Below, in pieces: positions 8,778-60,886 of a stretch of DNA of 64,000 nucleotides. The notes beneath the pieces were generated by a model. That model was given only the letters and a program-made list of their open reading frames with translations. It ran no database searches and was not told the DNA's origin. Within the stretch, counting starts at the first letter, position 1, and the number at the start of each line of letters is the position of its first letter. The stretch covers positions 1 through 64,000 of the forward strand of contig JAXDHV010000014.1 in the NCBI GenBank assembly GCA_034664295.1, given 5' to 3'. Origin of the DNA: Solirubrobacteraceae bacterium. Lineage in GTDB: Bacteria > Actinomycetota > Thermoleophilia > Solirubrobacterales > Solirubrobacteraceae. Position numbers and translations under genes: made by a program.

Positions 8778-10000
8778 GGGACCCCGGCCCCGGCCTCGGT
8801 CGCGACCGCCTGGCCGCGCCCCTCGCCGGTCGGCCGCCGCCGGCCGACCCGCCGGCCGAGCCCCACGGCATGGCGCTCGAGCCCGTACCAGCTCACAGCC
8901 GCGAGGGCTCCGGAAATCGACAGGGCGGCCACCAGGAAAGCTGCCGTGCCGAACCGCTCGGGCACCCGGTGGCGGCTGAGCTCGATCACGACGGCGAGAT
9001 GCCAGAGGTAGAGGCCGTAGGAGATCTGGCCGACCCACCGCAGCCAGCCCGCCCCGAGCAGCCGGCGCACCCAGCCGCGTCCGGCGCTCCCGAAGACGGC
9101 CGGCGCGAGCAGGCCGAGGGCGATCGCCGCCCGCAGCTCGTGGGGCACGACCCAGCCGCTCAGCGTCTTCGGTCCGCCGAAGAGCGCCTGCGAGTGGACC
9201 AGCGCCCAGTAGCAGACGGCCGCCAGGGCCCACGGGAGCCACGGCGCCCGGTCGATCAGGCGCACCCCGCGGGAGTCCCGGCCGGCCAATCCGACCGACA
9301 GGACGGCGAGGCCCATCCCGACCGCGAACAGGTCGACCGACGCCGGGAGTGAGATCAGGGCCGGGTAGTACCGGGGCGAGGCATCCGAGCTCAACTGGAG
9401 CCAGGCGATCTGCCAGGCGATCGACCCGATCGAGAGGACGACGAGGGCGCCGAGCTCGGTGAGCAGGAACGACCGCCGCCCGCGGATCGCGACCCTGCGC
9501 AGCCCCAGCGCGAGCGCGACGAGGCCGATGTAGAAGGTCAGCTCGACGTCGAGCGTCCACGCCTGGGCCATCCCCCGGTCGAGCGTCCGGGTGTCGTAGA
9601 CCTGGAGGAAGCCGAAATACGTCCCGATCCCGTGGAGCGTGAAGACCCCGTCGAGTCCGAGGACGATCGCCACGACGATCAGGGCGAGCCAGTAGGCCGG
9701 CGCGATCCGCAGGACGCGGCGTGCGGCGTACGGGCCGAGGCGCGGGCCGGGGGTCCCGTCGAAGCGGGCCTGGGCGAACGGCCGGTAGAGGAGGAAGCCG
9801 GAGATCGCGAAGAAGATGACGACCCCCTCGGTCGGGAAGCCGGCCGTCCGCTGGGTCAGGTAACCGGCGAGCGACCCGCCGAGGCCGGTCGTGTAGTACG
9901 ACGCGTGGTAGACGAGCACGCTGACGGCGGCGATCGCCCGTAGCGAGTCGAAGGACTCGAACCGCGGTCGGCTCAGCTCGGCCTCCGGGCCCGCAGCGAC
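8774..10000 (-). CDS. acyltransferase family 3 (OafA/OatA-like integral membrane O-acyltransferase)
   Basis: FDSLRAIAAVSVLVYHA near the N-terminus and about 10 TM segments. Its stop overlaps the GT2 start. The start codon is uncertain because there is no ATG/GTG/TTG near the expected position; ATG 10117 would overlap the upstream gene by 145 bp. Confidence 0.65.
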   Translation of the reverse strand, partial: VAAGPEAELSRPRFESFDSLRAIAAVSVLVYHASYYTTGLGGSLAGYLTQRTAGFPTEGVVIFFAISGFLLYRPFAQARFDGTPGPRLGPYAARRVLRIAPAYWLALIVVAIVLGLDGVFTLHGIGTYFGFLQVYDTRTLDRGMAQAWTLDVELTFYIGLVALALGLRRVAIRGRRSFLLTELGALVVLSIGSIAWQIAWLQLSSDASPRYYPALISLPASVDLFAVGMGLAVLSVGLAGRDSRGVRLIDRAPWLPWALAAVCYWALVHSQALFGGPKTLSGWVVPHELRAAIALGLLAPAVFGSAGRGWVRRLLGAGWLRWVGQISYGLYLWHLAVVIELSRHRVPERFGTAAFLVAALSISGALAAVSWYGLERHAVGLGRRVGRRRPTGEGRGQAVATEAGAGVP

Positions 10001-10740
10001 GCGTAGAAGCCGCCCATCGGCTTCTTCGCCTTCGGCCGGTGGATGCCCGTGTGCTTGACCTCGACGAAGCCCGCCGTCCACGGCCAGGCCTTGAGGCAGC
10101 TGAGGTTGGCATGCCACCAGTTGAACTGGGTCACCAGCGGCTCGAAGTGGGCGACCGGACGCCGGGGCGAGAGGATCGTGTCGGTCACCGAGAACGTCTC
10201 CAGCATGATCAGCTCGCCGCCCGGCTTGAGTGCCGCGAGCGCCCGCTCGAGTGCGCGGATCGGGTCACGCAGGTGGAGGAGGATCGCCCCGAGGAAGATC
10301 ACATCGACCGGTCCGCCGACGATCTCGGGCGTCAGGTCGTAGATGTCGCACTCGACCCGCCGGACCTTCGACGAGAGGGCCTCCGAGGCGAGCCGGAAGC
10401 CCCGGCCGAGGCGGATGTCCCAGTCGTTCATCCGGTCGACGAGCTCCGGCCGGCGGTTTGGCGGCCACTCGGCTGCGTCGAGCCGGGCGACGTCGATCGC
10501 GAGGCTCTGCGCGCCGCGCCGCTCGAGCTCGAAGGCCCAGAAGCCGTCGAAGGTGCCGACATCGAGTGTCCGCCGGCCGGTCAGGTCCTTCGGGAGGATC
10601 CTCGGGGCGACCGACCGCAGGTCGACGTTCCCGGGTGTCAGGACCCCCGGCGCGAGCTCGAGCGTGTGGTACCAGTGGGGGTTCGCCGCGACCGCCTCCC
10701 GCGCTCGGGCGGCGGCCTCGGCTTCGGCCGTCGGGCTCAT
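9973..10740 (-). CDS. class I SAM-dependent methyltransferase, CmoB/DUF1698-like (paralog 1 of 3)
   Basis: WYHTLELAPGVLTPG N-terminal block, the SAM-binding motif LDVGTFDGFWAFELERRGA, and LHLRDPIRAL. Paralogs lie at 23396..24238 and 28353..29063. Confidence 0.75.
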   Translation of the reverse strand: MSPTAEAEAAARAREAVAANPHWYHTLELAPGVLTPGNVDLRSVAPRILPKDLTGRRTLDVGTFDGFWAFELERRGAQSLAIDVARLDAAEWPPNRRPELVDRMNDWDIRLGRGFRLASEALSSKVRRVECDIYDLTPEIVGGPVDVIFLGAILLHLRDPIRALERALAALKPGGELIMLETFSVTDTILSPRRPVAHFEPLVTQFNWWHANLSCLKAWPWTAGFVEVKHTGIHRPKAKKPMGGFYASLRARRPS

Positions 10741-10791
10741 CGACTTGCAGCCTAACTCGAAACGTCCGACTATCCTCGCCGCAGACCGCCT

Positions 10792-12000
10792 GTGCGAGCC
10801 CCCCCGAAGAGCCGGATTCGGCGGCTGCGCGCCGGTCGCGTCGCGGTGGTCCTCGCCGGACTGCTCGGGGCGGCGCCGGCCGGCTCGGAGTCATCGCCGC
10901 CGCCCGCCGGCTTGGGCTCTGGCTCTGGAACACGCGCGGCGGGTGCGACCGGCAGGCGGGTGACGATCGCCGTGTTCGGGGACTCGGTCGTCGAGGCGTA
11001 CACGGTCCCCGGCTTCCTGCGGTGGGGCCTCGTCCCGCAGATCGGCGACTCGATGGTCGCCGCCGGGTTCGAGCGGGGCGGGGTCGGCCTGATCCCGGCG
11101 ACGCCGTTTCGGTGGCACTTCAACCACTTCGTCCCCTACAGCGTGAACCCGGCGCCGGCCGACGGCTGGCTGTTGGTCGGCTACGGGCTGGCCGGGAGCG
11201 ACGGGCCGAGCGGCTACAGCGCGCTGGCGTCCTCGCCGGCGGCGAGCGCGACCGCCCCGATCGACGACCCGCTGGTCGGCGTGCTCTACACGAAGAACAC
11301 GACGTCCGGATCGTTCACCGTGACCGCGGGATCCGCGACCTGGACGATCGACGCTCATTCGACCGGGCCTCCGACGCCGGTCGAGACCTGGCTCCAGATG
11401 CCGCCGGGAGCCAGGTCGATCACCGTCCACGGGCCGACCACCGGGACCCTCCTCTTCGACGGGGTCGTCGGCCGCCGCCCGGTCGCGGCCGCCCGGATCC
11501 AGGTCGAGGTCGACAACCTCGGCCATCAGGCCCACCTCCTCGGCCGGGACCTCTCCCCCCGGGTGATCGGCTCCCTGACCCAGCAGCGCTATGACGTCTC
11601 CGTCCTCCTCGGCGGCTACCTCTCCGAGCTGATCGCCGCGTCGCAGCCGGGGACCTACCGGGAGGACCAGTACCTGACGGCGCTGCGCAGGCGGGCCAGC
11701 CTCGTCAGAGCCTACGGCGGCCGCTGCCTGATCGTCGATCCGTCGCCGATCCCCGTCCCCGCGCGGATCGCGGTCCGGTATGCCGCGATCGACAGGCGGG
11801 CGGCGGCGCAGGCAGGTTGTGGCTACAGCCGGGCGCTCGCCCATCTCTGGAGCTCGGCGACGTCGGTCAGGCTGGGCCTGACGTTGGCCGACGACATCCA
11901 CCCGACGGCGGCCGGCTACCGCCTGATCGCCCGGGCGCTCGAGCCCGTGCTGGAGCGGATGACCCGCGAAGTCGTCCGGAACGTGAGTGCAACCCGGTGA
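10792..12000 (+). CDS. secreted SGNH/GDSL-family hydrolase (esterase/lipase or acyltransferase-like)
   Basis: Signal peptide (RLRAGRVAVVLAGLLGAAPAGS), block I VFGDSVVE and C-terminal DDIHPTAAG (DxxH). Confidence 0.7.
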   Translation: MRAPPKSRIRRLRAGRVAVVLAGLLGAAPAGSESSPPPAGLGSGSGTRAAGATGRRVTIAVFGDSVVEAYTVPGFLRWGLVPQIGDSMVAAGFERGGVGLIPATPFRWHFNHFVPYSVNPAPADGWLLVGYGLAGSDGPSGYSALASSPAASATAPIDDPLVGVLYTKNTTSGSFTVTAGSATWTIDAHSTGPPTPVETWLQMPPGARSITVHGPTTGTLLFDGVVGRRPVAAARIQVEVDNLGHQAHLLGRDLSPRVIGSLTQQRYDVSVLLGGYLSELIAASQPGTYREDQYLTALRRRASLVRAYGGRCLIVDPSPIPVPARIAVRYAAIDRRAAAQAGCGYSRALAHLWSSATSVRLGLTLADDIHPTAAGYRLIARALEPVLERMTREVVRNVSATR

Positions 12001-20395: not shown

Positions 20396-22372
20396 CTAGC
20401 GGCTGCCCGGTCCGTACACGGCGTAGCCGAGATCCCTGAAGAGGGCCCGCTCCCCGGCCAGGCAGCGAGCCGCCGTGAACGCCCGGAAGCCCGGGAAGAC
20501 GAACGTCGTCACGACCACCCACCCGGCCCGCGCCCTCGCCCGCACCGCCCCGCACGGCTCCTGCGCCCCGATCAACTCGAGCCGGTGCTGGAAGCGATCC
20601 CCGACCAGCGTCGCGACCGTCAGGTCGGCCATCGAGATCGTCGCCGACCCGTCGACGTAGCCGGGCTGGCGGTCAAACCAAGCCACCGGCCCGACGAACG
20701 GCGCGTCGGCGGCCGCGACCGACCGCCCGAGGAACCCGCCCGACCCCCACGCCAGGCCGAGCGCGAGCCCCAGCCCCGCGACGATCCCGACACCGGCCAG
20801 AGCAATCCGCCCGGGTCCCCCCCGGCCCACCAGTCCAGCCGCCAACGCCGCCGAGGCCCCGCCCGCCAGGCCGAGCACCAGCCACCCGGCCGGTGGCGTC
20901 TCGATCGACGTCGGCACGTACCTGCTCGCCCCCGCCAGGTTCACGACGAGGCCGGCGCCGAGCAGTCCGAGCGCAACCGTGCAACCCCTGCGACTCGCTC
21001 GCCCCAGCAGGCCGACCGCCACCCCCGCGGCCACCAGCACCGGCAGGACGTAGCGGTTCGTCGACGCCGTCAGCTCCCAGAGCCCGGGGTTCGTCGGTGC
21101 CCCGGTGACCGGCGCGCTCGCCCACCCCAGCAGACCCAAACCGACCGCCCCGCCCGCCAGGACGACGGGCCGCCGGCGGCTGACCAGCGCGCCGAGCAGG
21201 CCCCCCGCGAGGAGGATCCACGCGCCGCCGAGCTGCCATGTGTATGAGTCCCTGTAGATCTTCACCGGCCCATCGATCGTCGCCACCGGCCGCGACAGGA
21301 ACGACGGCTCGAGCGGCACGAGGAAGCTCGGGACCGGATCGCCGCCCCGCAGGCTGAGAAACGGCCACAGTGGCGAGCCGTGATCTAAGAAGTCACGCAC
21401 GTACCAAAGGCCGCCGAGGACCCCCGCCGCGACCACGGCCGGCCCGAGCCAGGCCGACATCCCGAGCAGCCGCCGCCGGTGCACCCACCCACCCGCCAGG
21501 AACACCAGCACCACCTCCGGCGCCACGGTCGTCTTCGTCCCGACCGCCAAGCCGCCCGCGAGCACGCCCGCCGCGAGCAGCCGCGGCCGCTCGATCGAGC
21601 ATGCGACCAGCGCTCCGCAGACCGCCAGCCAGCAGACGCCCGGCAGATCGGTTCCCGCGGTCGGGATCTGCTGGAGGAGGACCGGGACCGTTCCGAGGAC
21701 GCCCACGCAGAGGCCGCCGATCACGGCCGGGACGCGGAGCGCCCGGAGGCCGACCGATCCGGCCGCGAGCAGGAGGAGGTAGAGCATCGGGCTCCACAGG
21801 GTCGGCCCCGCGAACCCCCGCGAGATTCCCGCGATCCACGCGAGCGCCACCTCGTTGGTCAGGGGATAGCTCCCGAACGGGAGGTCGTAGCTCAGCGAGA
21901 CTGTCGATCCCGGCCGGCCGTTGCGGACCCACGCAGCCACGTCGTTGAGGTGGTACAGCGCCGCGTCGATTCCGATCGTCGGGTTCGCGATCAGCCACCC
22001 GCAGATCGCGACCCACCCGCCGGCGGCGGCTCCCCACGCGAGCCGCTCGGCCCGCGTTCGATCAGCCCACCATCCGGCCGCCGAAAGGCGCAGACCCGGC
22101 GGACGGGGACGGCCGGGGGCTGGCCCGGCGAGCGCGAGGCGGGTGAGCGCCCACGTGAGGATCGCTGCCCCCGCCAGCAGCCACGCCGACGATCCGAGCG
22201 AGAACAGACCCAGGCCGAGCGCCTCCAGCACCGCAAGCGACGTCGCGATCGGCGCGGCCGCGACGACGCGCACGAGGCCATCGCCCCCAAGTCGCCCAGC
22301 CACCCGCAGGCCGGTCGCGGCGAGCACGGCGATCGCGAGCACGAGGAGCACCTCGTGTCCTGCACCGCTCAC
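20396..22372 (-). CDS. large polytopic membrane protein, putative GT-C-fold glycosyltransferase (paralog 2)
   Basis: 658 aa. GTG start with a GGAGGG Shine-Dalgarno 8 nt upstream. Shares the conserved blocks of paralog 1 (YHLN, AWVRNGRPGS, YPLTNEV, GTKTT, SPLWP, LEPSFLSRP). Confidence 0.6.
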   Translation of the reverse strand: MSGAGHEVLLVLAIAVLAATGLRVAGRLGGDGLVRVVAAAPIATSLAVLEALGLGLFSLGSSAWLLAGAAILTWALTRLALAGPAPGRPRPPGLRLSAAGWWADRTRAERLAWGAAAGGWVAICGWLIANPTIGIDAALYHLNDVAAWVRNGRPGSTVSLSYDLPFGSYPLTNEVALAWIAGISRGFAGPTLWSPMLYLLLLAAGSVGLRALRVPAVIGGLCVGVLGTVPVLLQQIPTAGTDLPGVCWLAVCGALVACSIERPRLLAAGVLAGGLAVGTKTTVAPEVVLVFLAGGWVHRRRLLGMSAWLGPAVVAAGVLGGLWYVRDFLDHGSPLWPFLSLRGGDPVPSFLVPLEPSFLSRPVATIDGPVKIYRDSYTWQLGGAWILLAGGLLGALVSRRRPVVLAGGAVGLGLLGWASAPVTGAPTNPGLWELTASTNRYVLPVLVAAGVAVGLLGRASRRGCTVALGLLGAGLVVNLAGASRYVPTSIETPPAGWLVLGLAGGASAALAAGLVGRGGPGRIALAGVGIVAGLGLALGLAWGSGGFLGRSVAAADAPFVGPVAWFDRQPGYVDGSATISMADLTVATLVGDRFQHRLELIGAQEPCGAVRARARAGWVVVTTFVFPGFRAFTAARCLAGERALFRDLGYAVYGPGSR

Positions 22373-22699
22373 GGTTGAGCCCTCCCCCACGGCGCGGAGG
22401 CTAGACCATCCAGCCGATTGTGCTACTGTCACTCCGCAGGCTCGGTCCCCGAAGATGGTCATCTCACACGAGATGTCTGCACTGATCGACTGAGCCGAGA
22501 CGGAGCCGACGCGCTCCTCCACACTGCCGGGTCCGGATGTTCCCAAGCGGGCTCGGCCACACCGGCGGCGCTCACCAGTCCGCCAAAGCCAGAGCCGGAG
22601 TCGCCTTGCGCGGCCTGCCCGCTTCGACGCGCTCCGCCTTCCACGCCCGAACGCCGCAGACGTCCGTCTGTGCAGGGCATACGACAGAGAGAAAACATC

Positions 22700-23341
22700 A
22701 TGAATCGCCATCACCAACGGCTCCGCAACGGAATCGTCGCCTCCCTGACCGGCGGCCTCGCCGTCTTCGGAGTCGCGACCGTCGCCCCCGTCGCCGCCAA
22801 TGCCGCACAGGCCTGCACGAGCACGATCAGCGGCGCACACAGCGGTGTGATCAACGTTCCGGCCCAGCAGACACTGTGTCTTCGCAACGCCGTCCAGGAT
22901 GGTGCGGTGAACGTCGCCCCGGGCGGCGGCCTGTCGGTGCTCGGCTCGACCGTCACGGGTGCCGTGACGCTCAAGGCCGGCTACTCGAGCCTGACCTTCT
23001 GCGCCAGCCAGACCGTTCGTGGCGCGATCTCGGCGACCGGCGGCTCCGGTCCGGTCGAGATCGGTGGCGCCGGCCTGCTCGGCTCGCTGTTCTGCCCGTC
23101 CAACACGATCGACGGTGCGGTCACCCTGGATTCCAACCTCGCCGGCGTGACGCTCGCCGGCAATCAGATCAACGGTGCGGTGACGGCCAGCGCGAACCTC
23201 GACGGGACGACGATCTCGGGCAACCGGATCGCGGGCTCCCTGACCTGCACGACGAATGCCCCGCCGCCGACGAACGCCGGCGTGCGCAATGCGGTCGGTG
23301 GCGGCCGCTCGGGCCAGACCTGCTCGGTGCTCACCTTCTGA
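22700..23341 (+). CDS. secreted repeat protein (beta-helix-like G-x-V-T repeats), hypothetical
   Basis: Signal peptide (LTGGLAVFGVATVAPVAANA), periodic roughly 22-aa repeats (GSTVTGAVTL.., NTIDGAVTL.., NQINGAVTA.., NRIAGSLT) and paired Cys residues. Confidence 0.55.
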   Translation: MNRHHQRLRNGIVASLTGGLAVFGVATVAPVAANAAQACTSTISGAHSGVINVPAQQTLCLRNAVQDGAVNVAPGGGLSVLGSTVTGAVTLKAGYSSLTFCASQTVRGAISATGGSGPVEIGGAGLLGSLFCPSNTIDGAVTLDSNLAGVTLAGNQINGAVTASANLDGTTISGNRIAGSLTCTTNAPPPTNAGVRNAVGGGRSGQTCSVLTF

Positions 23342-23395
23342 GCCCGGCCATCCCCCCGGCCGCAGCCGGCCGGGGGGATCGGCGATGATGCCGGC

Positions 23396-24238
23396 GTGCC
23401 GATCGATGCGACCGTCGCGCCGGGTCTCGCCGAGCGGATCGAGGCGATGAGCTGGTACCACACGATGGACCTCGGTCCCGGCCTCGTCACGCCCGGCTTC
23501 TTCGACACCCGGCCGACCGTCGCCCGCGTACCCCTCCCGGAGTCGCTCGCCGGGATGCGCTGCCTCGACGTCGGCACGTGGGACGGCTTCTGGGCCTTTG
23601 AGATGGAGCGGCGCGGCGCCGCTTCGGTCACCGCGATCGACATCGAGGATCCCGCGCGGTGGGACTGGCCGCCCCAGACCCGGGTCGGCGAGCACTACAC
23701 GAGCGGTCGGCAGATCCTCGACGAGTTCAAGGGCGGCGGTCAGGCCTTCGCGCTCGCCCGCGAGGCCCTCTGCTCGCAGGTCGAGCGAGTCGACGTCAGC
23801 ATCTACGACCTCGACCCCGACGTCCACGGCCGGTTCGACTTCGTCTTCCTCGGCAGCCTCCTCCTCCACCTCCGCGACCCGATCCGCGCGCTCGACCGCC
23901 TCCGGGGGGTCTGCGGCGGTGAGCTCGTGATCGCCGAGATGGTCGAGGCGATCCCGTCGTGGCTGCGCCCCCGGACGCCGACCGTCCGCCTCGAGGGGAT
24001 CGAGCGGCCGTGGTGGTGGCAGCCGAACGTCGCCGCCCTCCACCGGATGGTCGAGAGCGCCGGCTTCGAGATCCTCCGGCGGACGCCGATCTACTTCCTC
24101 CCCCACGGCGCCGCCCATCCGAAGGCCCCCCGGCGGGCGATGGTCCGCCTCGCTCTCACCCCGGCCGGCCGAGAGCAGCTGATCGGCGTCTGGCGCGGCC
24201 TCCCCCACGCCGCCGTGCTCGCCCGCCCCGCGGCCTGA
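23396..24238 (+). CDS. class I SAM-dependent methyltransferase, CmoB/DUF1698-like (paralog 2 of 3)
   Basis: WYHTMDLGPGLVTPG, LDVGTWDGFWAFEMERRGA and LHLRDPIRAL. The start could be GTG 23396 or ATG 23446. Confidence 0.75.
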   Translation: MPIDATVAPGLAERIEAMSWYHTMDLGPGLVTPGFFDTRPTVARVPLPESLAGMRCLDVGTWDGFWAFEMERRGAASVTAIDIEDPARWDWPPQTRVGEHYTSGRQILDEFKGGGQAFALAREALCSQVERVDVSIYDLDPDVHGRFDFVFLGSLLLHLRDPIRALDRLRGVCGGELVIAEMVEAIPSWLRPRTPTVRLEGIERPWWWQPNVAALHRMVESAGFEILRRTPIYFLPHGAAHPKAPRRAMVRLALTPAGREQLIGVWRGLPHAAVLARPAA

Positions 24239-24251
24239 TCGGCAGGCGCCC

Positions 24252-25760
24252 GTGAGCGCGAGTCCGCCGCCCGAGGTTCCCGAGGACGCGCCCGACAGAG
24301 TCCCGGCCGAGGCGCTCGGCCTCCGGCGGCGGGCTGCCCGCGGGATGCTGATCAACGCCGTCTTCCTCGCCGGCCTGACGTCCCTCGGCCTGCTCAAGGG
24401 CTTCGTCGTCGCCGCGTTTCTCAGCCGCACCGACTACGGCGTCTGGGGCCTCCTCGTCGTGACGCTCGGAACGCTCAGCTGGCTCAAGCAGATCGGCGTC
24501 TCTGACCGCTATGTCCAGCAGGACGACGACGACCAGGAGCTGGCCTTCCAGCGGGCCTTCACGCTCGAGATCCTCTTCAGCGGGGCCTTCTGCGTCCTCG
24601 CGGCGGTCGTCGTCGGTCTGACCGCCGTCCTCTACGGCCGGGCCGGGCTCCTCGCTCCCGGCTTCGCCCTCCTCCTGACGATCCCCGCCTACATCCTCCA
24701 GTCACCGCTCTGGGTCTTCTACAAGCGGATGGAGTTCCTCCGCCAGCGCCGGCTCGAGGTGCTCGAGCCGATCGTCGGCTTTCTCGTCACGGTCGGCCTC
24801 GCGATCGCCGGCGCCGGCTACTGGAGCCTGATCGTCGGGATGGTCGCCGGCGCCTGGATCGGCGCGCTCGCGATCCTCCGGGCCGCTCCCTACCGGCTCG
24901 CCTTCCGCTACGAGGCGGGGACCGTCCGCCAGTACATCAGCTTCTCCTGGCCCCTCGCCCTGGCCGGGGTCGGCGGGATCATCGTCGCCCAGAGCTCGAT
25001 CATCGCCGGGAACGCCGCCCTCGGGTTGGCCGGTGTCGGCTCGATCGCCCTGGCCAGCTCGATCGTCCTGTACACCACGCAGGTCGACCAGATCGTCAGC
25101 CAGACGCTCTACCCGGCGATCTGCGCCGTCTCCGACAAGCCGGATCTCCTCTTCGAGTCGTTCGTCAAGTCCAATCGCCTCGGCCTGATGTGGGGCGTCC
25201 CGCTCGGCGTCGCGATCGCCCTCTTCATGCCGGACCTCGTCGACTTCGGGCTCGGCGCCCGCTGGCGGCCGGCCCTCGCCCTGATCCAGATCTTCGGCCT
25301 GATCGCCGCAGCCGACCAGATCGCGTTCAACTGGGACGACTACTACCGCGCACGGGCCGACACGCGACCGATCGCGGTCGTGAGCATCGTCACGATGCTC
25401 GCGTGCGTCACCACGGCGATCCCCCTCCTGCTGATCGACGGCCTGACCGGATTCGGAATCGGCATGGCGTTCGCCGCGGCGGTCGGGATCGCCGGTCGGA
25501 TCATCTACATGGTCCGCCTCTTCCCGTCCTTCGGCGTCCTCCGCCACAGCACCCAGGCGATCCTCCCGACGATTCCGGGAGCCATCGTCGTGCTGGTCCT
25601 CCGCGAGCTCGACGGTCGCCGGACGGTCGGCGTCGCGATCGGCGAGGCGGCCGCGTTCCTACTCGTGACGGCGGCCGTCACGCTCTACCTCGAGCGGCCG
25701 CTGCTGCGCGAGGTCACCGGGTATCTGCGCAATGCGCGGGGAGCGGCCGGCGGGGCCTAA
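24252..25760 (+). CDS. Wzx-like polysaccharide/oligosaccharide flippase (MOP superfamily)
   Basis: 502 aa with about 12-14 TM segments, typical of polysaccharide biosynthesis flippases. Confidence 0.75.
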   Translation: MSASPPPEVPEDAPDRVPAEALGLRRRAARGMLINAVFLAGLTSLGLLKGFVVAAFLSRTDYGVWGLLVVTLGTLSWLKQIGVSDRYVQQDDDDQELAFQRAFTLEILFSGAFCVLAAVVVGLTAVLYGRAGLLAPGFALLLTIPAYILQSPLWVFYKRMEFLRQRRLEVLEPIVGFLVTVGLAIAGAGYWSLIVGMVAGAWIGALAILRAAPYRLAFRYEAGTVRQYISFSWPLALAGVGGIIVAQSSIIAGNAALGLAGVGSIALASSIVLYTTQVDQIVSQTLYPAICAVSDKPDLLFESFVKSNRLGLMWGVPLGVAIALFMPDLVDFGLGARWRPALALIQIFGLIAAADQIAFNWDDYYRARADTRPIAVVSIVTMLACVTTAIPLLLIDGLTGFGIGMAFAAAVGIAGRIIYMVRLFPSFGVLRHSTQAILPTIPGAIVVLVLRELDGRRTVGVAIGEAAAFLLVTAAVTLYLERPLLREVTGYLRNARGAAGGA

Positions 25761-56611: not shown

Positions 56612-56720
56612 CGGGCCGGGTGGCCACCTCCGCGGTGGCCGCGCGATTCCCGACCCTCCTCGACGACTCCCGGGCCAGTATTCCCCGCGCCGCCGGGGAA
56701 AGGGCTAGGATCGCTGGACT

Positions 56721-57830
56721 GTGTGGGGTCGAGCGGGGATACAGAGCTGGATCGGCCGTAACGCCCGCGCCGCAACCCTCGTCGCGGTCGGCGCACTCGG
56801 CGGCGGGGCGGCCTTCGCCGCGGCTTCGGTGCCCGACGGGAACGGTGCCATACACGCCTGCGTGCTGGCGTCCGGCGGAACCACGATCCCCAGCTCGAAC
56901 CCGGGAGTCGCGAACATCCGGATCATCGATCCCAGCGCCGGCCAGTCGTGCGCCGTCGCCGGCGGCGAGAGCACCGTGTCCGAGATCCCGCTGACCTTCA
57001 ACGCATCCGGTCCGACTGGTCCGGCGGGTGTCGCAGGCCCGAGCGGGGCCAACGGTTCGAATGGGTTGCCCGGGGCGGTCGGTCCGACGGGGGCGGTGGG
57101 TCCGCTAGGGCCGGTGGGTCCGGCAGGGCCGGTGGGTCCGCCCGGGGCAGCAGGTCCGGCAGGGCCGGTGGGTCCGCTAGGGCCGGTGGGTCCGGCAGGG
57201 GCAGCAGGCCCGGCAGGAGCGGCTGGATCGAACGGATCAGCCGGGCCCGTGGGTCCGGCCGGCGCCAACGGATTGAACGGGTTGCCAGGACCGGTCGGGT
57301 CATCCAGCACGACGGACGCCGGGGGAGCGCAGAGCGCGGCGAGCAACATCTTCATCAGGTTGCGGCCGGCGAGCGGGCCGGACATCGGGCCGGTCGCGAT
57401 CGACCATGTGGCGTTCGAGGCGACGACGTCGACGAGCATCGGCTCGGCGTCCTCGGGCGCCGGTGCCGGCAAGGTGAAGTTCGGGGCGCTCGTGCTGCAG
57501 AAGGCGATCGACCCGACGTCGCCCGTGCTGTTCAAGGCGCTCGCCGCCGGCGAGCACTTCTCCCAGGCGACCGTCTTCGTCCGCGTCGGCCGGGGCGTCG
57601 CGCAGACCGACCAGCGCGAGTACCGGATGTCACAGGTCTTCGTCACCAGGCTGGCGCAGGACACCACGACGACAAAGGCCGATGAGACGGTCCAGCTCGC
57701 GTTCGGCGCGATCCAGCTCGTCGAGTTCGTGCTGAGCCCGTCGGGCAAGTCGCAGGGCGTGATCGTCGGCGGCTGGGACCAGGCCAAGAACACGTCGTTC
57801 AAGCCGACGACGCTGCTCCCGGCCCCGTGA
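56721..57830 (+). CDS. secreted collagen-like (Gly-X-Y)32 triple-helix repeat protein with C-terminal Hcp-like (T6SS tube / phage-tube fold) domain
   Basis: Signal peptide [22 protein letters not shown]. An uninterrupted GXY tract runs [16 protein letters not shown]...GLPGPVG. The C-terminus [44 protein letters not shown]...[12 protein letters not shown]...[15 protein letters not shown] aligns with Hcp1 (GGGGAGKVxxxDLxFxKxxDxxSPxLxxAxxxGxH...EY..I.L..V.V.S...E.V.L.F). Confidence 0.7.
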
Positions 57831-59211: not shown

Positions 59212-59652
59212 TCAGGCGGCCCCGGCCGCCAAACAGTCGGCGCAGAGCCCCCAGATCAAGAGCTGGGCGTGGTCGGGCGAGAATCCCGCGTCGATCGCTG
59301 ACCGCAGGGCCCCCGGCGGGATCTCGGGCCCGTCGAGATCGGCGAGGGCGCCGCAGTTGCGGCAGACGGTGTGGGCGTGGGGGTCGACGTGGGAGTCGAA
59401 GAGGATCGCCCCGGTTCCGGTGCTGAGCCGGCGGACGAGGCCGAGCTCCTCGAGCAGGAAGAGCGTCGCGTATACGGTCGGGATCGCGATCCCGGGGAGC
59501 GCTGGGGAGACGGCGTCGAGCACCTGATCGGCCGTGACGTGCTGTTTGCGAGCGTGGAGCTCGCGGTAGATCACCAGACGCTGAGACGTGACGCGGTGGC
59601 GGCTGGCCCGGAGCTTCGCGCTCAGCAGCCTGTCGGCTGGGTGGGTCTGCAT
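59212..59652 (-). CDS. Fur-family metalloregulator (Fur/Zur/PerR type not resolved)
   Basis: DNA-binding helix SQRLVIYRELHARKQHVTADQV, a metal site HVDPHAHTVCRNCG and a C-terminal CADC. Confidence 0.8.
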   Translation of the reverse strand: MQTHPADRLLSAKLRASRHRVTSQRLVIYRELHARKQHVTADQVLDAVSPALPGIAIPTVYATLFLLEELGLVRRLSTGTGAILFDSHVDPHAHTVCRNCGALADLDGPEIPPGALRSAIDAGFSPDHAQLLIWGLCADCLAAGAA

Positions 59653-59731
59653 TCGACGAAGCCTAGCTGATCGTCGTCTCTAGTTGTTGTTAGGCACACC
59701 TTATTTGAAACCAGATGCTATAACTCAGTCT
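59653..59731. promoter_or_regulatory. AT-rich divergent intergenic region between the Fur gene and the VIT gene, candidate metalloregulator operator
   Basis: tagttgttgttaggcacaccttatttgaaaccagatgctataactcag is sharply AT-rich against a background of about 70% GC. TATAAC lies 9 nt before the VIT ATG. Confidence 0.35.
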
Positions 59732-60382
59732 ATGGCGAGCGCCGAGGAGACAGTCGAGACGCCCTCCGCGTCCCCCTCCCCCCCGCCCTCCGCGTCCCCG
59801 CCGCCCCCGGACTCCTCCCCACCCCCCGCCGACTCCCCCACCGAGCCGCCGCGGGCGGGCCGGGCAACCGGGTCGGGGTCGATCCTTGGACGGCTGCTGA
59901 AGCGGCTGACCCGCACCGACGATGCCGACTTCGTCCTCCAGATCGTCCAGCCGTCGCTGGTCGGGATGATCGACGGAACCGTCTCGACACTCGCGCCGAT
60001 CTTCGCCGCGGCGGTTTCGACCAGCTCGCGCACGGCACTCCTCGTCGGCATCGCGACCGCCCTCGGAGCAGGGGTGAGCATGGGAATGTCTGAGGCCCTC
60101 TCGGATACGGGAGAGCAGACCGGCAGGGGTCCGGCGCTCGCCCGGGGCCTGATCACCGGGGGGGCGACGGCGATCGGGGGGATCTTCCACTCGTTGCCGT
60201 TCATGATCGCCGACGTCAACAAGGCGCTCGCGGTCGCGGGGATCGTCGTGGCGGTCGAGCTGTTCGCGATCGCGTGGGTCCGCCACCGGTTCCTCCACGT
60301 GAGCATGCGCTCTTCGCTGATCGTCGTGACCCTCGGTGGTGCGATCGTCCTGGGCATCGGAGTCATCGTCGGGAGCTCGTAG
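59732..60382 (+). CDS. VIT1/CCC1-family (DUF125) iron/manganese transporter
   Basis: VGMIDGTVSTLAPIFAAA and C-terminal TM repeats typical of VIT-family proteins. The N-terminus is Pro/Ser-rich. Confidence 0.7.
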   Translation: MASAEETVETPSASPSPPPSASPPPPDSSPPPADSPTEPPRAGRATGSGSILGRLLKRLTRTDDADFVLQIVQPSLVGMIDGTVSTLAPIFAAAVSTSSRTALLVGIATALGAGVSMGMSEALSDTGEQTGRGPALARGLITGGATAIGGIFHSLPFMIADVNKALAVAGIVVAVELFAIAWVRHRFLHVSMRSSLIVVTLGGAIVLGIGVIVGSS

Positions 60383-60394
60383 AATCGTCGTGCC

Positions 60395-60886
60395 TTGACG
60401 ACCGCGCCCCAGGTAGCCGCGCTTTCCTTCGACGACATCGACGATGCCGTCAACGCGCTCCGGGCGCGGGGGCTGCGGTTGTCGATCGCCCGGCGGATGG
60501 TCCTCGAGCTGCTCTTCAAGGAGATCGACCCGGTCTCGGCCGAGCACGTCGCCCAGACGCTGGGGATCGACGTGGCGTCGGTCTACCGGAACCTCGAGAT
60601 GCTCGAGCGCCATGGACTGGTCCACCACGTGCATCTCGGCCACGGGCCGGGGCTCTACGTCCTGGTCGGCCGGGGCGAGCACGAATACCTCTACTGCGAC
60701 CGGTGCGCGACTGTCACCCCGCTCGAGCCGGAGCGGCTCGACCCGATCCGCGACCAGCTGCGGGCGAGCTTCGGCTACGAGGTCCGCTTCACCCACTTCC
60801 CGCTGGTCGGCCTCTGCCGGGACTGCGCGGGAGAGGACCGGCCGGCGGCGGTCGACCCGCACTCCTCGCATTCCCACGGGCACTGA
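60395..60886 (+). CDS. Fur-family metalloregulator (second paralog)
   Basis: ARRMVLELLFKE...EHVAQTL HTH, HHVHLGHG, CDRC and CRDC metal-site motifs. Confidence 0.8.
   Translation: MTTAPQVAALSFDDIDDAVNALRARGLRLSIARRMVLELLFKEIDPVSAEHVAQTLGIDVASVYRNLEMLERHGLVHHVHLGHGPGLYVLVGRGEHEYLYCDRCATVTPLEPERLDPIRDQLRASFGYEVRFTHFPLVGLCRDCAGEDRPAAVDPHSSHSHGH

Follow-up and report, generated by a model that had tools for sequence, protein, structure and literature searches.

Why should the fold of Hcp, the tube protein of type VI secretion systems (T6SS), be found at the end of a collagen-like stalk and behind a signal peptide in a member of the Actinomycetota? The question is raised by an open reading frame (ORF) at 56721..57830 on the + strand of a 64,000-nucleotide stretch of DNA from a Solirubrobacteraceae bacterium (contig JAXDHV010000014.1), which is referred to here as the window. 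The ORF has a GTG start and encodes 369 aa, comprising a Sec-type signal peptide, a short N-terminal module with two cysteines (the N-module), a run of Gly-X-Y (GXY) triplets, a linker, and a complete Hcp-fold domain. Proteins of this family carry the automatic database name "T6SS tube protein Hcp". Is this a T6SS component, as the name would have it? Or, is the Hcp fold put to another use in these bacteria? Whatever its label says, the protein is no subunit of a T6SS tube. The best explanation, which we hold with moderate confidence, is that it is a T6SS-independent, Sec-exported, extracellular oligomer, in which an Hcp-fold head is carried on a collagen stalk of repeat-tunable length, and that it forms a fibre at the cell surface or in the matrix.

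Such a fusion might be an annotation artefact, with a 193-aa Hcp as the real gene and an untranslated frame of N-module and GXY triplets upstream. There are two observations that would favour this. The first of these is the JGI annotation of the source contig, Ga0467055_0000042 (metagenome 3300044830, 123 kb), where P0121, a "T6SS secreted protein Hcp" of 193 aa, is called; it is 100% identical to the C-terminal part of the 369-aa protein. A 98-aa gene is also called there on the opposite strand, over the N-module. The stretch concerned is window 56721-57299, which in locus L048 corresponds to 2457-2753 on the minus strand and to the part upstream of 3001. The second is that the G+C content at third codon positions (GC3) falls to 0.67 in the collagen tract. 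On the other side, N-module, GXY triplets and Hcp domain share one frame throughout, and this frame is kept in P0001-P0009 and across all 166 proteins that we collected with this architecture. The N-module has a GC3 of 0.92, and for the Hcp part the value is 0.97. In the alignment the GTG lies where homologues P0001-P0008 have their N-termini, and a Shine-Dalgarno-like AGGA (56707..56710, + strand), read from the sequence, lies 10 nt 5' of it. Compared with the nearest relative (P0001; locus L049) there are 13 non-synonymous changes in the collagen tract, and despite these not one triplet glycine has been lost. The Hcp part has just 9 differences from this relative, too few for a meaningful ratio of non-synonymous to synonymous substitution rates (dN/dS), and more distant orthologues were used for the selection estimates in its place. 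With orthologues from two Solirubrobacterales metagenome-assembled genomes (MAGs), dN/dS is 0.24-0.48 across the N-module and the Hcp domain, and 0.24-0.39 for the N-module alone. These substitution patterns indicate that the N-module and the Hcp domain are under purifying selection and that the triplet glycines are preserved. We therefore reject the artefact reading, which has almost no probability left, and with it the alternative raised in the preliminary description of this DNA, that the GXY tract is an artefact of frame; the ORF position given there is exact. The JGI call for this contig is wrong, and its 98-aa opposite-strand gene is spurious. Because that call keeps just the last 193 aa, the fusion is invisible in the public annotation of the contig.

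The N-terminus (aa 1-35; 56721..56825, + strand) follows the classical signal peptidase I pattern, and Sec-type export is predicted from its sequence features. Its n-region contains R4, R13 and R16, and the median net charge of this region across family members is +2. The h-region is made up of Ala, Gly, Val and Leu, with a hydropathy peak of 1.7 over aa 17-35, and AlphaFold places a helix over aa 5-26. The predicted cleavage site lies between A33-A34-A35 and S36-V37-P38-D39. In the family alignment A33 never varies, and at least 90% have an Ala at the position of A35; among the family members with the N-module motif, Ala occupies position -3 in 116 of 116 and position -1 in 113 of 116. Neither a lipobox cysteine nor a twin-arginine motif is present at the N-terminus. 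The A-x-A motif, the positive n-region and the hydrophobic core together support the Sec-type signal peptide that had been proposed from the sequence.

The N-module follows (aa 36-95, about 60 aa; 56826..57005, + strand). It is marked by the motifs SVPD..G.IHAC and DPSAGQxC, and its cysteines, C47 and C77, are invariant or nearly so in the family, in agreement with the Cys-containing N-terminal region already noticed. It passes straight into the collagen tract without a linker. The N-module has no match to Pfam or NCBIfam models, and its AlphaFold model is of low confidence (predicted local distance difference test, pLDDT, 64) and has no structural neighbour. It has the look of a domain family, so far undescribed, by which secreted bacterial collagens are nucleated or anchored. 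The combination of N-module and collagen was found outside the Actinomycetota too, with MAGs of the Burkholderiales, Chloroflexia and Acidimicrobiia among its carriers.

The collagen-like tract (aa 97-195; 57009..57305, + strand) is uninterrupted, as had been described, and by regular-expression count contains 33 GXY triplets, not 32. It matches Pfam Collagen (PF01391) with an E-value of 3.3e-15 and 56 bits, against a cut-off of 27.2. Proline is at X in 18 of the 33 triplets, and the Y position is taken mainly by Ala, Val, Asn or Thr; a count of the composition finds no charged residue in the tract. Both this absence of charge and the GC3 of 0.67, beside 0.92-0.97 in the flanking parts, are unusual, for bacterial collagens as for the host genome. 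Within the tract Tandem Repeats Finder detects imperfect tandem DNA repeats with periods of 18, 36 and 54 bp and 78-83% matches (57068..57217, + strand), and this segment is absent from the orthologous P0002-P0009. The overlap of the extra segment with the tandem repeats and the low GC3 points to local repeat expansion. Across the family the median is 8 triplets (interquartile range 6-10) and the most is 32, in P0001. The window protein and the near-identical P0001 thus have about four times the family median, and the other members of their subclade have 7-11; by this count the window protein is the long-stalk form of its subclade. Stalk length varies among relatives from 0-3 up to 33 triplets, and reaches about 90 in L006. 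This extreme, on a 1.27 Mb contig of a Solirubrobacterales MAG (9587-11551), has its triplets in runs of 64, 5 and 21, and its Hcp-like C-terminus is very divergent (hidden Markov model, HMM, E-value 1.5e-4).

Is the C-terminal part really an Hcp? A Ser/Thr/Ala/Gly-rich linker (aa 196-206; 57306..57338, + strand) separates it from the collagen. In the AlphaFold2 model of aa 196-369, built with 100 family sequences (pLDDT 77.9; predicted template modelling score, pTM, 0.72), aa 196-205 have a pLDDT below 50 and there is no secondary structure up to modelled residue 11. The Hcp-fold domain (aa 207-360; 57339..57800, + strand) is complete. Pfam T6SS_HCP (PF05638) matches over aa 227-332 with an E-value of 1.6e-13 and 51.5 bits, against a cut-off of 23.5. 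A phmmer search of the PDB with the C-terminal 175 aa finds the T6SS Hcps 4tv4 (E 1.8e-10) and 1y12 (PA0085; E 7e-8), and the PDB Hcp1 alignments reach query residues 160-165 or so, nearly the end of the protein. With Foldseek, each of the best 50 PDB matches is either a T6SS Hcp structure or a chain from an engineered Hcp1 fusion; E-values go down to 2e-9, the probability is 1.0, TM-scores are 0.6-0.7 and 163-174 columns are aligned. Sequence search, profile and fold thus agree that the C-terminal 150 aa or so are Hcp-like, as was first noticed from the sequence. The lack of a significant Hcp match would have spoken against this, and since the match to PF05638 is significant the Hcp assignment is solid. 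The domain is nevertheless far from a canonical Hcp: identity to solved Hcps is about 20%, and it scores 30 bits with the NCBIfam TssD model TIGR03344, below the cut-off of 58.9. It holds a conserved GxGAGK loop and a C-terminal GGWDQAKN motif. The last 10 aa or so after the fold form a tail that, with the stop codon, completes the ORF (57801..57830, + strand); members of the close subclade P0001-P0008 share this tail, which is disordered in the model. Neither an LPXTG motif nor a C-terminal membrane segment is seen in the sequence.

Phage tail tube proteins share homology with the Hcp fold, and a phage-derived tube and tail-fibre chimera, one of the options first proposed, or a remnant of a prophage or tailocin, might also bring collagen and tube together. 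In its favour, the PHROG families that match the collagen part are of the tail-fibre kind, and for the Hcp part there is a match to phrog_27303, of unknown function, with an E-value of 1.4e-12. The tail-fibre matches are, however, confined to the repetitive GXY region. A tblastn search of 50,697 phage genomes with the Hcp domain gave no match, and no relatives were found in IMG/VR. Fold matches to viral proteins in BFVD are of a generic tube kind and far weaker (E-values of at least 3.5e-4, TM-scores of 0.4-0.5) than those to the T6SS Hcps. The genes around the ORF argue in the same direction. No T6SS, contractile-injection or phage genes are present at 40.8-63.7 kb of the window, as had been reported for T6SS genes nearby, and there are none of these within 10 kb on either side of two close orthologous loci. 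We consider a phage origin very improbable.

What are the neighbouring genes, and do they point to a function? Upstream are genes for an amine oxidase, a DUF1365 protein and a CMAS-family protein, and downstream is a convergent short-chain dehydrogenase/reductase (SDR) gene, which is the position between a cyclopropane-fatty-acid synthase cassette and an SDR gene that was described before. In addition to these, the 40.8-63.7 kb region has ordinary genes of metabolism and regulation, for ABC and MFS transporters, MarR and RpiR regulators, a polyketide-cyclase-like protein, two Fur-family regulators, VIT1 and a luciferase-like monooxygenase. The two closest orthologues have neighbourhoods entirely different from that in the window, and homology clustering of the ORFs within 7 kb on either side of 29 loci revealed no conserved partner gene. 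Recurrent neighbours occur in just 10 or so loci of a paralogous subfamily, where they are LigD, an EEP phosphatase, a response regulator and a histidine kinase. Because this block, checked in locus L009 and found to be housekeeping, is confined to the paralogous subfamily, the synteny reflects relatedness and not function or partnership. A 916-aa "ORF" upstream in the loci of this subfamily was rejected as an antisense shadow of ligD. These results bear on another use of the fold. T6SS Hcp rings bind effectors in their lumen, and the protein could form a released carrier or chaperone ring, with cargo such as a toxin or an enzyme in the lumen and the collagen for multimerization or tethering. 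The strong conservation of the inner-loop motif, both across the family and in proteins with several Hcp domains, would fit a role in cargo binding. No cargo-type gene is conserved in the 29 loci, though, and the window gene is flanked by genes for lipid modification and redox functions. We find a carrier ring improbable.

The architecture had been called unusual. It is confirmed, but it is not singular: the 166 proteins make up a large family in which a typical member has about 8 triplets, and nearly all of the species-representative carriers are Solirubrobacterales, an order in the Thermoleophilia of the Actinomycetota, or other Actinomycetota soil MAGs. The distribution among other Actinobacteria, a check suggested at the outset, was addressed in two ways. 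When one genome was scanned for each species, there were 45 loci, about 35 of them with N-module, GXY triplets and Hcp domain; reading frames in the loci were chosen by HMM guidance. Among 1.84 billion cluster representatives, a profile search picked out 174 matches below 1e-30; of the best 150, some 110 are single-domain matches over the full length, of 240-340 aa. In the analysis, the host of the window protein was assigned through its homologues, from orthologues that are 71-79% identical. The Solirubrobacterales MAG locus L022 has two N-module-collagen-Hcp genes in tandem (9965-10849 and about 10860-11727), so the family expands by gene duplication too. A full-text literature search found no published description of collagen-Hcp fusions, of Sec-dependent Hcp in Actinomycetota, or of tandem-Hcp proteins. 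The domain architecture is new, undescribed and widespread, and its building blocks are already known.

The modules are also exchanged. N-module and collagen are joined to other heads in P0213-P0219 and at loci L008, L011, L012, L019, L021, L034 and L036. In P0213, P0214 and P0216 the head is an unknown, beta-rich domain of about 240 aa. In P0215 it is a Peptidase_S74 "chaperone of endosialidase" domain of the tail-fibre type that is typical of trimeric fibres, and there are several further heads. Conversely, collagen and Hcp stand behind divergent or unrelated N-termini in P0330, P0276, P0292, P0290, P0340 and P0297, and P0011 has two chitin-binding CBM_5_12 modules in addition to collagen and Hcp. 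Judged by these domain arrangements, there is a recurrent logic of a base module, a stalk of variable length and an exchangeable head. A signal peptide before an Hcp may not be confined to this family. At locus L041 of an uncultured member of the Hyphomicrobiales (9821-10351), a stand-alone Hcp of about 160 aa has an apparent Sec signal peptide, MFRVLTAIMALFVFALPLTAAS, immediately before the canonical DYFLKIEG start, so signal-peptide Hcps may exist in Proteobacteria too.

The family-profile search also found proteins with several Hcp domains, and six is much the commonest number: there are six domains in 24 proteins, five in 7, four in 6, three in 2 and two in 6. The six-domain proteins (P0221-P0227, P0229-P0233 and others) are single chains of about 1000-1500 aa, and P0221 matches PF05638 six times (E 5e-213). 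Some of them begin in Planctomycete style with LEDRRLLA, and the C-termini of others are of the cadherin/Big_9 and RTX-like kinds. From their domain count these chains look like covalent Hcp hexamers that are used outside T6SS.

How might the protein assemble? In the explanation that we favour, export and cleavage of the signal peptide would be followed by registration of three chains by the N-module, which would nucleate the collagen triple helix. At 0.29 nm for each of its 99 residues the helix would measure about 28 nm, compared with about 7 nm in typical members. The Hcp-fold domains would be the distal globular heads, and the flexible linker would let them associate into the ring that is normal for the fold. 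Six heads per ring would be the most economical arrangement, in which case there would be two triple-helical stalks per ring, with the mismatch between three-fold and six-fold symmetry absorbed by the linker. The reach of the particle would be set by the GXY copy number, which may have grown about fourfold by tandem duplication in the lineage of the window protein. Formation of the triple helix and of the ring are both inferred. For the ring, the alignments cover the whole Hcp1 fold, and among the matches are the N-terminal fusions GspE-Hcp1 (4ksr/4kss), Vps4-Hcp1 (6ap1) and TrwK-Hcp1 (7o42), which form hexameric or trimer-of-dimer assemblies; N-terminal appendages are therefore compatible with Hcp1 assemblies. 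Together with the predominance of six domains in the multi-domain proteins, this suggests that the Hcp heads can still form rings.

The main rival to the stalked ring is a trimeric fibre with a trimeric head, in which the Hcp fold has lost ring formation and has become a beta-sandwich knob on a single triple helix, serving as an adhesin or a surface nap. It would resemble BclA of the Bacillus exosporium, or Scl proteins with reversed polarity. The collagen imposes three-fold symmetry, and N-module and collagen carry a head of the trimeric-fibre kind in P0215. The divergence of the Hcp domain, seen in its low identity to solved Hcps and in its TssD score, and the short linker of the subclade, about 11 aa, would also suit a knob. 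However, none of the best 50 PDB fold matches is described as a trimer, and the oligomers that are named are hexamers or trimers of dimers. The linker in the family is long and flexible (median 40 aa, 5-95% range 12-67), and this fits a symmetry mismatch better than a rigid knob. The prevalence of six tandem copies also speaks for rings. We think the trimeric knob rather unlikely.

A broader proposal, which we regard as doubtful, is that the ring of Hcp has a second, T6SS-independent life as a Sec-exported extracellular building block. In the Gram-positive Solirubrobacterales there would be, as in the stalked oligomer, six heads per ring, with the tails pairing three by three, either as two stalks or in a lattice. 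In the lattice variant, the tails of three neighbouring rings would meet at three-fold nodes and generate a hexagonal surface lattice or sheath. The six-Hcp single chains seen in other phyla would then be this ring in covalent form.

Several points weigh against the stalked oligomer. The three-fold symmetry of collagen and the six-fold symmetry of the Hcp ring do not match, and this is accommodated by assumption alone. With their 5-10 triplets, most members have a tract that is short for a triple helix to be stable unless a strong domain nucleates it, and the trimerizing or anchoring role of the N-module is a guess, as its model is of low confidence and without structural match. The tract of the window protein is free of charge, and no prolyl hydroxylase was seen near the gene. 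The signal peptide was judged from sequence features alone. Lastly, the protein may be released and not attached to the surface, since no LPXTG, lipobox or membrane anchor was found.

How does the protein compare with known systems? With the T6SS Hcp/TssD proteins (Pseudomonas aeruginosa Hcp1 PA0085, 1Y12; Burkholderia pseudomallei 4TV4; Acinetobacter baumannii 4W64) it shares the fold over the whole length, PF05638, the GxGAGK loop and the C-terminal motif, GW[DN]xxxN. Unlike them, it has a signal peptide, as judged above, and about 170 aa of N-module and collagen before the fold. Its score with the TssD model and its identity to solved Hcps are low, no T6SS genes are present at the loci examined, and the hosts are Actinomycetota, which are Gram-positive and monoderm, and not diderm bacteria. 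In the extended Hcp effectors (Hcp-ET) an Hcp domain is likewise fused to another module in one polypeptide. The Hcp-ET extension is a C-terminal toxin that is delivered by T6SS, and the window protein is not an Hcp-ET effector, because its extension is N-terminal and structural. In single-chain multi-Hcp proteins such as P0221 the Hcp fold also occurs outside T6SS, in large and probably secreted proteins that share the loop and tail motifs, but these have six tandem domains and no collagen. The engineered X-Hcp1 fusions (4KSR/4KSS, 6AP1, 7O42) place a foreign polypeptide N-terminal to an Hcp that still assembles. They differ in being cytoplasmic, in having no collagen, and in using Hcp1 as an artificial hexamerization scaffold for ATPases.

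In layout the nearest parallel is BclA, from the exosporium of Bacillus anthracis, with its N-terminal targeting or anchoring part, collagen stalk of variable copy number and C-terminal beta head. In BclA the GXY copy number varies between strains and sets the length of the filament, and the head is a trimeric jelly roll of the C1q/TNF type. The window protein has instead a head of the Hcp fold, which is normally hexameric, an unrelated N-terminal module and no spore context, and sequence similarity between the two is confined to the GXY repeats. Streptococcal Scl1 and Scl2 and Legionella Lcl are also Sec-exported and have a globular domain beside a triple helix. Their NCBIfam equivalog models match the GXY tract, with scores far below those required (63.5 vs 325, 42 vs 400 and 49 vs 500 bits). 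Scl collagen regions are rich in charged residues, unlike the charge-free tract described here; in addition, the window protein has no LPXTG and the globular domains are unrelated. The defence collagens (C1q, collectins, ficolins and adiponectin) have the same order of a short N-terminal Cys region, a collagen stalk and a C-terminal globular head. Hexamers of adiponectin are two joined trimers, which parallels the two stalks proposed per Hcp ring. These proteins are, however, eukaryotic and have trimeric heads, and the likeness is an architectural analogy alone. A function as a surface or matrix fibre, either an adhesin or a spacer, is our best inference, drawn solely from the likeness to BclA, to Scl and to the defence collagens and from the pattern of exchangeable heads. 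Nothing suggests a wholly new mechanism.

Other features of the window are of less consequence for this protein. No second N-module, Hcp domain or GXY tract is present elsewhere in it. A consensus scan, which is of little use at 70% GC, found no sigma-70-like promoter for the gene, and one weak terminator-like site lies on the opposite strand within the 3' end of the ORF (57809-57793). Downstream, two genes for Fur-family regulators (59212-59652, - strand, and 60395-60886, + strand) flank one for a VIT1-family iron/manganese transporter (59684-60382), and this is a compact metal-homeostasis cluster (59212-60886). For a 1344-aa ORF at 20396-24430 on the - strand, Pfam gives no match at E<=0.001, and the codon statistics are borderline (GC3 0.81; GC2, for second positions, 0.59). 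This ORF could be no more than a shadow, or it could encode a large protein that is uncharacterised.

What does a collagen-borne Hcp fold mean for the way these bacteria are read? For type VI secretion, Hcp counts as a hallmark. Annotation pipelines name the proteins of this family as T6SS tube proteins, and metagenomic surveys take hcp/tssD as a marker of T6SS activity. No T6SS is known from soil Actinomycetota. With a large family of Sec-exported Hcp-fold proteins in these bacteria, part of the "hcp" signal from soil is therefore unrelated to T6SS. The protein also poses a structural question, as a three-fold collagen stalk is joined to a fold that normally forms six-fold rings, and its tract adds an unusual, charge-free example to the bacterial collagens. 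Such a natural stalk-plus-ring scaffold, tunable by its repeats, would have a possible use in protein engineering.

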